Assembly (NCBI RefSeq): GCF_003334335.1
Contig: NZ_QOWQ01000024.1
Direction: 5' to 3' (one strand)
Length of the DNA stretch: 64,000 nucleotides
Origin: Escherichia coli
GTDB taxonomy: Bacteria; Pseudomonadota; Gammaproteobacteria; Enterobacterales; Enterobacteriaceae
Numbering within the stretch: the stretch's first letter is position 1; every line of letters starts with the position of its first letter. The position numbers and the translations under genes are program-made. Below the pieces are notes generated by a model that ran no database searches, was not told where the DNA came from, and worked only from the letters and a program-made list of their open reading frames with translations. Shown here piece by piece: positions 17,070-31,678 of the stretch.

Positions 17070-18246
17070 ATTGCAGACCGCGCTCTTTCAGGCGTTCGAT
17101 ACCCTGAATCTGCAACGGGTAAAAACATTTAGCGTTCCACCGGTGACGCTTTGCGGTCCGGGCTCGGTGAGCAGTTGCGGACAGCAAGCGCAAACGCGTG
17201 GGCTGAAACATCTGTTCGTGATGGCAGACAGCTTTTTGCATCAGGCAGGGATGACCGCCGGGCTGACGCGTAGCCTGACCGTTAAAGGTATCGCCATGAC
17301 GCTCTGGCCATGTCCGGTGGGCGAACCGTGCATTACCGACGTGTGTGCAGCCGTGGCGCAGTTGCGTGAGTCAGGCTGTGATGGGGTGATCGCGTTTGGC
17401 GGCGGCTCGGTGCTGGATGCGGCGAAAGCCGTGACGTTGCTGGTGACGAACCCGGATAGCACGCTGGCAGAGATGTCAGAAACCAGCGTTCTGCAACCGC
17501 GCTTGCCGCTAATTGCCATTCCAACTACCGCCGGAACCGGCTCTGAAACCACCAATGTAACGGTGATTATCGACGCGGTGAGCGGGCGCAAGCAGGTGTT
17601 AGCCCATGCCTCGCTGATGCCGGATGTGGCGATCCTCGACGCCGCATTGACCGAAGGTGTGCCGTCGCATGTCACGGCGATGACCGGCATTGATGCGTTA
17701 ACCCATGCCATTGAAGCATACAGCGCCCTGAACGCTACACCGTTTACCGACAGTCTGGCGATTGGTGCCATTGCGATGATTGGCAAATCGCTGCCGAAAG
17801 CGGTGGGCTACGGTCACGACCTTGCCGCGCGCGAGAGCATGTTGCTGGCTTCATGTATGGCGGGAATGGCGTTTTCCAGTGCGGGTCTTGGGTTGTGCCA
17901 CGCGATGGCGCATCAGCCGGGCGCGGCGCTGCATATTCCGCACGGTCTCGCGAACGCCATGTTGCTGCCAACGGTGATGGAATTTAACCGGATGGTTTGT
18001 CGTGAACGCTTTAGTCAGATTGGTCGGGCACTGCGAACTAAAAAATCCGACGATCGTGACGCTATTAACGCGGTAAGTGAGCTGATTGCGGAAGTTGGGA
18101 TTGGTAAACGACTGGGCGATGTTGGTGCGACATCTGCGCATTACGGCGCATGGGCGCAGGCCGCGCTGGAAGATATTTGTCTGCGCAGTAACCCGCGTAC
18201 CGCCAGCCTGGAGCAGATTGTCGGCCTGTACGCAGCGGCGCAATAA
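17059..18246 (+). CDS. eutG: iron-containing alcohol dehydrogenase EutG
   Basis: 395 aa from ATG 17059 (MQNELQTALFQAFDTL...); overlaps eutJ end. Confidence 0.9.
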   Translation: MQNELQTALFQAFDTLNLQRVKTFSVPPVTLCGPGSVSSCGQQAQTRGLKHLFVMADSFLHQAGMTAGLTRSLTVKGIAMTLWPCPVGEPCITDVCAAVAQLRESGCDGVIAFGGGSVLDAAKAVTLLVTNPDSTLAEMSETSVLQPRLPLIAIPTTAGTGSETTNVTVIIDAVSGRKQVLAHASLMPDVAILDAALTEGVPSHVTAMTGIDALTHAIEAYSALNATPFTDSLAIGAIAMIGKSLPKAVGYGHDLAARESMLLASCMAGMAFSSAGLGLCHAMAHQPGAALHIPHGLANAMLLPTVMEFNRMVCRERFSQIGRALRTKKSDDRDAINAVSELIAEVGIGKRLGDVGATSAHYGAWAQAALEDICLRSNPRTASLEQIVGLYAAAQ

Positions 18247-18248
18247 AT

Positions 18249-18432
<184 letters not shown>

Positions 18433-18462
18433 ATAAATAACAACTAACAGGGAGTAAAGGCG

Positions 18463-29150: not shown

Positions 29151-30134
<984 letters not shown>

Positions 30135-30156
30135 GCGTTTCTGATTCATTGATTAA

Positions 30157-30367
30157 AGGCCAGGCAGTAACATTACTGACTGGCCTCAGATTGTTGACCA
30201 AGTGCGCGTTGTACACGCCGGATGCGGCGTGAACGCCTTATCCGGCCTACGAAATCGTGCTAATTCAATATATTGTGGGCTCCACGTAGGCCTGATAAGC
30301 GTAGCGCATCAGGCAGTTTTGCGTTTGTCAGCACTCTCAGACCAGCCAGTAACATTACTGACTGGCC
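30157..30367. repeat. BIME/REP cluster flanked by two direct copies of a terminator hairpin (..cagtaacattactgactggcc)
   Basis: Hairpin copies at 30157-30186 and 30343-30367; REP units gccggatgcggcgtgaacgccttatccggcctac (30217-30250) and gtaggcctgataagcgtagcgcatcaggc (30286-30314). Confidence 0.85.
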
Positions 30368-30373
30368 TTTTTA

Positions 30374-31678
30374 TTACTTCTGCTTTAACGCCGCATACAC
30401 CTGATCAACTACCCAACCATAAGTTGCAATCGGCAACTGACCGCTTTCGAACATATTGGGATTCTTTTGCGGATCGGCAACCGGCGAATGTGGCTTGTTG
30501 CTTAACATCACAATCGTCATATGATTCACCGGATCGATAACGGTCACCGTTCCGGTCCAGCCAGTGTGACCGTAGGTTTGCGGGCTTGCCAGCGTGCCAA
30601 ACGTCGGCGTCATGGTGGCATTACCATTCACGCGCCAGCCGAGGCCAAAAGTGGCATCTTCCTTAGAGCTGGTGGTGAACATCTTCACCGTTTCCGCATT
30701 GAACAGCTGCACATCACCATAGCCCCCGCCGTTCAGCATCGTTTGCATTAACACCGCAATATCGCCGGTATTGGAAAACAAACCTGCGTGCCCGGAAACG
30801 CCGCCCATCGAATAAAAGGCTTTTTCATCGTGCACCTGACCCCAGAGAGTGGAGGTGCGGATATTCGGGAAATGGATCACGCCATCGCGGGTATTGCCGT
30901 TCAATTCCGTGGCGGCAATTTGTTGCGGTTTAAAGCCTTTCAGCAGCGGGTTAAATACCGTATGTGTCAGGCCGAGCGGGCGATAAATCGACTCTTCAAC
31001 ATAGCGGTCAAGCGGCTGACCGGTAACCGACTCGACGATAAATCCAAGCAGCATATAATCGACATCGCTGTAGATATGTTTGCTGCCGGGCTGATATTCC
31101 AGCGGCGTGCGCTTGATCATCTCCAGCGTCTGGCCTTTATCCTGGGAATATAACGCGCCCGCGACCGCTTTATTCGGGTATTGCGGATCTGCCGGGAAAC
31201 CGCCGCTGTGATGCAGCAGGTCAGAAATCCGCAGGGTGTTTTTGCCTTTAATGGTGTCATTTGGACTATCGGCAAACCCCGGAATATATTTCGCAATCCG
31301 ATCGTCAGGATGCAGTTTGCCTTCGCTCATCAGCTTTTGCAGGGCGAAGTTCGTGGCGTACATTTTGGTGTTTGAGGCCAGGTCATACAGCGTCCCGGTG
31401 GTGGCTTTGACAGGCTGTTCCATCAACACGCTGCCATCGTACTTTTTCGCCGCTCCCCAGGCTTTGCGATACACAATCTGATTATCTTTAATGATCAGCA
31501 GGTTTACGCTGGGATAACCGACATCAACTTGCTGGCTAATCCAGCGATCCATCTGGTTAAGCCGTTCGACGTTAAACCCTGCTTTCTCTGGCGAGCTTTC
31601 TGTCAGAACAGGGTATTTTGCGGCGCTGACGCTACAACTAACAGCCAGCAGAGAAAGATAGAGCATTGTCCGTTTCAT
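30374..31678 (-). CDS. yfeW: penicillin-binding protein 4B (class C beta-lactamase fold) YfeW
   Basis: 434 aa from ATG at 31678 (MKRTMLYLSLLAVSCSVSA...); SxxK-type motif LASNTK. Confidence 0.88.
   Translation of the reverse strand: MKRTMLYLSLLAVSCSVSAAKYPVLTESSPEKAGFNVERLNQMDRWISQQVDVGYPSVNLLIIKDNQIVYRKAWGAAKKYDGSVLMEQPVKATTGTLYDLASNTKMYATNFALQKLMSEGKLHPDDRIAKYIPGFADSPNDTIKGKNTLRISDLLHHSGGFPADPQYPNKAVAGALYSQDKGQTLEMIKRTPLEYQPGSKHIYSDVDYMLLGFIVESVTGQPLDRYVEESIYRPLGLTHTVFNPLLKGFKPQQIAATELNGNTRDGVIHFPNIRTSTLWGQVHDEKAFYSMGGVSGHAGLFSNTGDIAVLMQTMLNGGGYGDVQLFNAETVKMFTTSSKEDATFGLGWRVNGNATMTPTFGTLASPQTYGHTGWTGTVTVIDPVNHMTIVMLSNKPHSPVADPQKNPNMFESGQLPIATYGWVVDQVYAALKQK

Follow-up and report, generated by a model that had tools for sequence, protein, structure and literature searches.

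The 64-kb window of K-12-like Escherichia coli DNA analysed here (all coordinates are window positions) carries, in the spacer that separates yfeX from the convergent yfeW, a bacterial interspersed mosaic element (BIME) bracketed by two direct copies of one terminator hairpin. The element is a BIME-1 (RIP/RIB-type), with one Y and one Z1 palindromic unit (PU, or repetitive extragenic palindrome, REP) in inverted orientation. Our conclusion, held with good confidence, is that a single old BIME-1 integrated into the terminator shared by the two genes and duplicated its hairpin, and that units were later lost or multiplied between the hairpin copies. Moreover, the target-duplication reading is supported beyond yfeX-yfeW, for the BIME-1 family. 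The spacer, 100% identical to that of BW2952 by genome comparison, is laid out as follows.

29235-30134, plus strand: coding sequence of yfeX (porphyrinogen/Dyp-type peroxidase), stop codon TAA at 30132-30134; from the open reading frame list and the RefSeq annotation of matching genomes
30157-30186, unstranded: terminator hairpin copy 1, stem 30158-30185, with an A-run upstream (30155-30157) and the BIME, not a T-run, following
30187-30216, plus strand: left outer motif of the BIME-1, CAGATTGTTGACCAAGTGCGCG..., an inverted-repeat arm conserved in 34 BIME-1 copies
30217-30250, plus strand: Y-type PU (REP), identical to the known Y unit in core and tail; inverted repeat
30251-30285, plus strand: L linker, with a site resembling the integration host factor (IHF) consensus at 30263-30275
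30286-30314, minus strand: Z1-type PU (REP), inverted relative to Y; the Y and Z tails pair as an inverted repeat
30315-30341, plus strand: right outer motif of the BIME-1, ...GCGTTTGTCAGCACTCTCAGA, common to the sister copy at cysM-yfeS up to ...TCTC(A/C)GA, and to 34 copies
30339-30368, unstranded: terminator hairpin copy 2, with a T-run after it (30368-30372); strict duplicate 30342-30368
30374-31678, minus strand: coding sequence of yfeW (pbp4B), convergent with yfeX, stop codon at 30374-30376; from the open reading frame list, the RefSeq annotation and homologues named PBP4B

The duplicated hairpin and the element between its copies

A preliminary description of the window had reported a direct hairpin repeat around REP/BIME sequence between convergent yfeX and yfeW, and this is confirmed: AGGCCAGGCAGTAACATTACTGACTGGCCT (30157-30186) and AGACCAGCCAGTAACATTACTGACTGGCCT (30339-30368) are 30-nt direct repeats, identical at 28/30 positions and lying 182 nt apart from start to start. 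The bracketed sequence is, as had been stated, a BIME, in which the Y PU, the L linker and the Z1 PU can each be identified. Terminators have GC-rich stems and T-runs in common, and two independent look-alike terminators might on that ground have come to stand on either side of the element by chance or convergence. The identity of the two copies, however, takes in an asymmetric loop, 100 shuffles of the window give an expectation of 0 chance matches for the 21-mer core of the repeat, alleles with a single copy exist, and the flanks of this locus align with a score of 50 against a null maximum of 20 (see the family comparison below). Chance can thus be dismissed for practical purposes.

The REP pair sits inside conserved outer motifs, so that the element as delimited spans 30187-30341 (155 nt) and the whole insert, hairpin plus BIME, measures 182 nt. 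The 30-nt repeat overlaps the end of the BIME by 3 ambiguous nucleotides. Because the BIME reaches 30341, as seen in the sister copy and in other Escherichia, strict duplication is limited to a block of 27 nt (30160-30186 and 30342-30368; 26/27 identical). Its sole mismatch is a strain-polymorphic G/C site, and the second apparent mismatch in the longer repeat, the A at 30341, is a K-12-lineage change in the ambiguous junction, where other Escherichia have CTCAGGCCAG. In the sister copy and 58 other copies the left outer motif reads CAGATTG(C/T)TGAC(A/C)AAGTGCGC and the right one GCGTTTGTCA(T/G)CA(G/C)TCTCA, with family consensus sequences CAGATTGCTGACAAAG and CTTTGTCATCAGTCTCA, respectively. 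At yfeX-yfeW the outer motifs pair at 11/15 positions, within 47-nt arms that match at 81% overall; terminal inverted repeats are therefore present, if imperfect. The L linker is conserved across 60 copies, and ATTCAATATATTG (30263-30275) within it is a putative IHF site, matching the consensus WATCAANNNNTTR at 12/13 positions by manual count. The RefSeq annotation of NC_000913.3 lists no repeat feature for the spacer, and Rfam returned for 30187-30363 only sub-threshold, REP-derived matches: naRNA4 (36 bits, against a gathering threshold of 59.5), ES036 and Yersinia Ysr224. The match to Ysr224, a Yersinia small RNA, spans 30187-30239, that is, the left outer motif and Y, and is a possible lead to Yersinia YPAL-type repeats.

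RNA folding gives the two hairpin copies free energies of -18.6 and -11.3 kcal/mol (copies 1 and 2) on the plus strand and of -19.7 and -20.8 kcal/mol on the minus strand, with z-scores of -3.3 to -6.1. A T-run follows copy 2 only, and an A-run precedes copy 1 only. Copy 1 is accordingly predicted to terminate only the minus-strand (yfeW) transcript, and copy 2 the plus-strand (yfeX) transcript; since copy 1 has no T-run and copy 2 no A-run, both transcripts would continue across the BIME and end at the hairpin on its far side. yfeX and yfeW would in this way each keep a terminator beyond the BIME. In the allele with a single hairpin, AAAGGCCAG...CTGGCCTTTTT, A-run and T-run flank the same hairpin (free energy -20.3 kcal/mol, z-score -6.5), which has the form of a predicted bidirectional intrinsic terminator. 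A simple terminator scan called neither copy in the window, a miss that is attributed to an internal mismatch in the stem, nor did it call the single-hairpin allele.

Alleles of the locus and the age of the insertion

Among 5426 complete E. coli genomes, 1401 have the full hairpin-BIME-hairpin allele; the other allele classes were read from an even sample of the ranking, 40 rows in all. Insert-less alleles, with exactly one hairpin and no BIME, make up 19 of these 40 rows. They are 182 nt shorter than the filled allele when closely related to it, and 185 nt shorter when divergent, owing to an extra 3-nt indel in the right flank. The preliminary description had taken the two hairpins for a duplicated host terminator resembling a target duplication, and had proposed a search for alleles with a single hairpin and no BIME; such alleles are present and exactly 182 nt shorter, and they bear this reading out, as does a Citrobacter-like outgroup with one hairpin. 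None of the 5426 genomes has two hairpins without a BIME. About three quarters of E. coli genomes have no 182-nt unit and K-12-like E. coli has 1, and the hairpin sequence is restricted to the yfeX-yfeW locus, with 1 to 3 places per genome. In 9/40 sampled rows (BL21 and others), yfeW is almost wholly deleted and one hairpin is kept.

Some alleles of the spacer carry changes of their own. In BL21(DE3) and Ecol_656 (L003 and L004, about 1040-1160), yfeX and one hairpin are joined to a short pseudogene remnant beside murP. IS200C stands directly after the T-run of the single hairpin in E. coli 98227 (L005, 540-1245), a second mobile element at the yfeX-yfeW terminator, and IS1 lies within one K-12-like allele of the spacer. 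E. coli Br_178_kylling (L006) has a 29-nt deletion corresponding to window positions 30323-30351, with GTTTGTC joined to TGACTGGCC, that takes the right end of the BIME together with the left arm and loop of copy 2; this allele is probably common to 9 records in the top identity band of the hairpin search. For the K-12-like E. coli BHUCD02 (H141/H222), a query in which the copy-1-type hairpin is set beside the BIME right end matches at 100%, which suggests that copy 2 has there been converted to the copy-1 sequence. Such a conversion would be direct evidence of exchange between hairpins.

A collection scan for the BIME-1 linker pattern GTGCNAATTCAATANATTG, with copies in Escherichia and Pseudocitrobacter, retrieved the locus from three other Escherichia species, each with the architecture yfeX-(hairpin-BIME)n-hairpin-TTTTT-yfeW. 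E. whittamii (L061) has n=1 and two hairpins, Escherichia sp. E1V33 (L105) has n=2 and three hairpins, and Escherichia sp. MOD1-EC7003 (L086+L087) has n=7 and eight hairpins, with a tandem period of 182 nt and 96% matches. The BIMEs of these species differ from the K-12 copy at 4-8/154 positions and have locus-specific substitutions and junctions in common with it, whereas the sister copy differs from them at 20-26/154; hence they are orthologous and go back to a single integration.

These arrays also give a hearing to an account without target duplication, in which a hairpin-plus-BIME unit was duplicated in tandem, by unequal exchange or by rolling-circle amplification through a REP-associated tyrosine transposase (RAYT; the Ton-Hoang model), and then partially deleted. 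Arrays of exactly this unit do exist, and amplification has been proposed to be able to take up flanking sequence (PMC3333891). Yet the number of hairpins equals the number of BIMEs plus one in every allele, from n=0 to n=7, and no hairpin-BIME allele was seen without the second hairpin. Moreover, 13 unrelated loci with different hairpins have the same flush layout around an element of constant length (152-155 nt), as expected from integration but not from duplications that were each time partially deleted. We therefore give tandem duplication very little credence as the origin of the second hairpin.

The question of when the integration occurred is separate. The preliminary description implied a recent insertion, and in its explicit form this would mean that K-12 gained the BIME lately, within phylogroup A, and that the single-hairpin E. 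coli alleles were never occupied. The alleles exactly 182 nt shorter form the majority, the flanks of K-12 equal those of single-hairpin alleles (against ARS-C301 they differ at 0/200 and 2/200 positions), and neither an internal hairpin junction nor more than one unit was found in any E. coli genome by megablast against the 5426 genomes. Against this, the BIME of E. whittamii and two further Escherichia species agrees with that of K-12 in its junctions and locus-specific substitutions, for which reason the insertion is taken to be old and to have occurred in an Escherichia ancestor. The BIMEs diverge among Escherichia by 2.6-5%, similar to the flanks, which favours age over recent import, and an import would need to have been confined to 182 nt without donor changes in the flanks. 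Furthermore, a right-flank variant, ACTTTTGC, is common to the filled allele L009 and the single-hairpin allele L001, in place of the ACTTCTGC of K-12 and of the three further Escherichia species. A recent gain is thus improbable. Most single-hairpin alleles in E. coli are probably secondary deletions between hairpin copies rather than never-occupied sites, given, for the A/B1 alleles, the near-identical flanks, a hairpin identical to copy 1 in the BIME-less alleles L001, L003 and L007, and the variant that L009 and L001 share. Bachellier 1997 is said to report the 'excision of a whole BIME-1'.

The state before the insertion is represented by a Citrobacter-like locus (L115), with the same convergent arrangement of yfeX and murP-yfeW and 87% DNA identity in yfeX. 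Its spacer holds one GGCCAG...CTGGCC hairpin with a T-run and no BIME, and this single hairpin is taken as the ancestral state. Salmonella enterica and C. freundii (L111, L112) were considered as outgroups and rejected. There yfeX is followed by cysP or by ucpA-cysP; they are not comparable because murR-murQ-murP-yfeW is absent after yfeX in the genomes examined and the terminators differ. On another Citrobacter-like contig (L113), yfeW is present and a Citrobacter-type REP pair replaces the hairpin in the spacer.

Flanking duplications across the BIME-1 family

The family was assembled from 60 linker matches (Escherichia and Pseudocitrobacter loci plus the window), of which 34 have both outer motifs and reduce to 22 independent loci. 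For each element, the 45 nt to its left were aligned with the 45 nt to its right, and 462 mismatched left/right pairings served as the null. A hairpin-length flanking repeat is present in 13/22 loci, with scores of 25-55; the null has a maximum of 20 and a 99th percentile of 18. These repeats are 16-31 nt long and start or end within 4 nt of the element ends, and each is a different, locus-specific hairpin (free energy -7 to -17 kcal/mol), with a T-run after the right copy in most of the 13 loci. A second locus with filled and single-hairpin alleles is yccJ-agp, where K-12 MG1655 has one hairpin (ACTCCCCCGCTTCTCGCGGGGGAGT) and both E. coli 1919D3 and E. whittamii have hairpin-BIME-hairpin. Further tandem (hairpin-BIME)n arrays with n+1 hairpins occur at L104 (n=2) and L107. 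BIME-1 elements have been stated to 'occur as single copies' (PMC3333891); they are single per locus in all E. coli and tandem in E1V33, MOD1-EC7003, L104 and L107, so the published rule fails across the genus. MOD1-EC7003 has in addition a second tandem array (L088, 2700-3400), with seven BIME-1-type linker motifs at a 107-nt period, whose Y-L-Z units lack both outer motifs and hairpins; BIMEs seem to amplify readily in this genome.

Several observations weigh against a single old integration that duplicated the hairpin, or against its extension to the family. Nine of the 22 loci, the sister copy included, are without a long duplication. Three of the nine (L017/L029, L036 and L031) have 5-8-nt repeats only, which are the 5' foot of an intact hairpin to the right of the element, and the remaining ones, including the cysM-yfeS sister and L011, have no repeat or degraded copies; hairpin-length duplication is therefore common but not universal. 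At yfeX-yfeW itself, the K-12 hairpin copies differ at 2/30 positions despite flanks nearly identical to those of single-hairpin alleles, so that change after the duplication, or exchange with other alleles, is needed. Position 30164, a homoplastic G/C site, fails the four-gamete test against the nearby indel. Within a lineage the loops of the two hairpins agree in type (CATTAC in K-12, E1V33 and MOD1; a CACAAC-like sequence in E. whittamii), which requires either homogenisation between the copies or independent events. The polarity rests on one Citrobacter-like outgroup, protein searches with YfeX and YfeW having brought up no hits named as E. albertii or E. fergusonii, and the terminator behaviour of both copies is a prediction. 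Finally, the boundaries defined by the duplication differ from the C^T sites at which the RAYT protein TnpA_REP cleaves in vitro (PMC3333891), and the T-run is not always preceded by C.

Other repeats in the window contribute less. The preliminary description had named a sister BIME at cysM-yfeS, given as 41130-41250, and had called a lysV-distal locus a parallel to the yfeX-yfeW duplication. The sister is indeed of the same family and inverted; its extent is larger.

41122-41275, minus strand: sister BIME-1 (cysM-yfeS), 154 nt, different from the yfeX-yfeW copy at 23/154 positions, without flanking hairpin duplication

The two loci have only the BIME in common (about 30196-30338), not the hairpin. 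A 958-nt indel (41115-42072) has the sister at its left edge and also holds yfeS, encoding a WGR-domain protein. About 1382/5426 E. coli genomes have this block, and the others join cysM directly to yfeK. In genomes without it the 3' end of yfeK differs, and GGATTAAT stands at both block edges in the window. There is no clean duplication at the block; the sister copy is therefore uninformative on BIME insertion and was dropped as a second example. Nor does the lysV-distal parallel stand: its 61-nt direct repeat (60/61 identical; 58253-58313 and 58409-58469) consists of a tRNA-Lys 3' end and terminator with no BIME between the copies, which lie ~95 nt apart around sequence that looks like a decayed tRNA 3' half. 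Only one Val and one Lys tRNA are found there. The repeat looks like a tRNA-terminator module that was duplicated, or like an att-type remnant, and has no relation to BIMEs. A third BIME, between eutG and eutH (18249-18430, 182 nt), has four palindromic units in two ~100-nt units. On either side of it stands the 8-nt sequence CAATAAAT, as an exact direct repeat (18241-18248 and 18431-18438) whose first copy overlaps the eutG stop codon. Unit number varies here in E. coli (spans of 801, 701 and 684 nt). No BIME-less allele was seen among the E. coli alleles of this locus, so a target-duplication or fixed-stagger reading of the 8-nt repeat is unverified.

Relation to known elements and possible mode of movement

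The spread of REP and BIME sequences has called for explanation since the 1980s and is at present credited to the RAYT transposase, a protein with relatives that insert without target duplication. BIME-1 is defined by one Y and one Z1 PU in inverted orientation, separated by a long L linker with an IHF site (PMC3333891, PMC1187871); it is known as BIME-1, RIP or RIB from the work of Gilson, Bachellier and Hofnung, of Boccard and Prentki, and of Oppenheim, with a length of about 140-155 nt and a location at the 3' ends of transcription units (PMC3333891, PMC1187871). BIME-1 is present in some isolates and absent from others (PMC3333891; PMC1187871, citing Bachellier 1997). The yfeX-yfeW element has the published Y, L and Z1 make-up and, in addition, the flanking duplication and the terminal inverted repeats. 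Neither these two features nor tandem BIME-1 are described in the reviews consulted, and Bachellier 1997 or Boccard and Prentki 1993 may hold earlier mention of them.

Proliferation of REP and BIME sequences has been attributed to TnpA_REP, which cuts single-stranded DNA at C^T near the BIME (PMC3333891, PMC2817692), and its gene is found between yafL and fhiA in 74/110 E. coli/Shigella genomes, one per E. coli (PMC3333891). BIME-1 is like the elements of the REPIN/RAYT system in having two inverted REPs with a spacer and in being non-autonomous and hairpin-rich. It could accordingly have been placed beside the hairpin by RAYT 'peel and paste', without duplication, the second hairpin arising later by slippage or template switching; and at yfeX-yfeW the hairpin does have GGCC^T at its 3' foot on either strand. 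The C^T rule as an explanation of the junctions, however, fits yfeX-yfeW and fails at several other loci, such as L012, L062 and L071. Moreover, transposition of the IS200/IS605 type entails no target repeats and no terminal inverted repeats (PMC3333891, PMC2817692), and BIME-1 has both, while slippage as a second event would be needed at 13 loci, each with flush junctions. This makes the two-step account unlikely, and a pure peel-and-paste origin is ranked low; RAYT may still be involved.

Closer likenesses are found elsewhere. [quoted passage not shown] MITE duplications, though, are short and fixed (often TA), and MITE ends are usually those of a known insertion sequence, whereas the duplications of BIME-1 vary (5-8 or 16-31 nt) and track the size of the hairpin, the 16-31-nt class being set by target structure. 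The closest behavioural precedent is Yersinia YPAL/RU-2, which in the summary of De Gregorio 2006 given in PMC2229807 is ~168 bp long, is not A+T-rich and has internal inverted repeats, with target duplications of 3-26 bp, targets that span or adjoin dyad symmetries, and filled and empty sites in relatives. Variable duplication at palindromes and filled or empty sites are what BIME-1 displays; the comparison is one of behaviour and not of sequence. YPAL/RU-2 differs in belonging to another genus and sequence family and, in that summary, in having no IHF linker, and BIME-1 duplications reach 31 nt, that is, a whole hairpin. REP dimers inside palindromes in other phyla (Di Nocera et al., PMC3733652) are related but differently arranged. 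REP elements have been said to lack the signatures of MITEs (PMC3184786), a statement that the BIME-1 footprint of constant ends, imperfect terminal inverted repeats and duplicated hairpins at 13/22 loci contradicts.

The preferred account of yfeX-yfeW can be set out as a series of proposed steps. A BIME-1 of 155 nt would have inserted into a bidirectional intrinsic terminator shared by the convergent genes, in an Escherichia ancestor whose single-hairpin state was like that of the Citrobacter-like relative. Integration would have copied the whole terminator palindrome (27-30 nt), leaving one copy at each end of the element, with the length of the target-site duplication set by the hairpin. 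The two copies could from then on have acted as direct repeats for slippage or recombination that changed the number of 182-nt units, with repeated unit loss in E. coli and expansion via the same route in two other species. From the work of Bzymek and Lovett in 2001 and of Sinden in 1991, direct repeats around a quasi-palindrome are said to be substrates for deletion and expansion. That process accounts for the loss of the unit (1 to 0) and its gain (n=2, n=7), but not for the first duplication. For the latter, the breaks may have fallen at opposite palindrome feet, one on each strand, and been followed by fill-in, for instance through attack on an extruded cruciform; speculatively, a fixed small stagger might yield a hairpin-length duplication on the extruded cruciform and the 5-8-nt class on linear DNA, and the central IHF bend could join the two element ends. 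We know of no parent insertion sequence for BIME-1. As a tentative proposal, then, BIME-1 may have moved by a double-strand mechanism with defined ends at the feet of terminator cruciforms, the IHF bend possibly joining the ends and each insertion 'healing' the site by duplicating the whole terminator.

Taken alone, the yfeX-yfeW locus is unremarkable, an old BIME-1 insertion that can serve as a 0/1/2/7-copy marker within Escherichia. For the family, the footprint would limit the mechanism to one that cuts both strands at palindrome feet. It also offers an explanation for three traits of the family: BIME-1 elements would lie at the 3' ends of operons because terminators are the target; their insertions would be tolerated because the neighbouring genes keep a complete terminator beyond the element; and they would often be present or absent among strains because a quasi-palindrome between direct repeats favours exact loss and, occasionally, tandem expansion. 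If the proposed mode of movement is correct, E. coli's most abundant IHF-binding repeat would spread otherwise than by RAYT-type peel-and-paste, and its insertion would be reversible via deletion between the hairpin copies.

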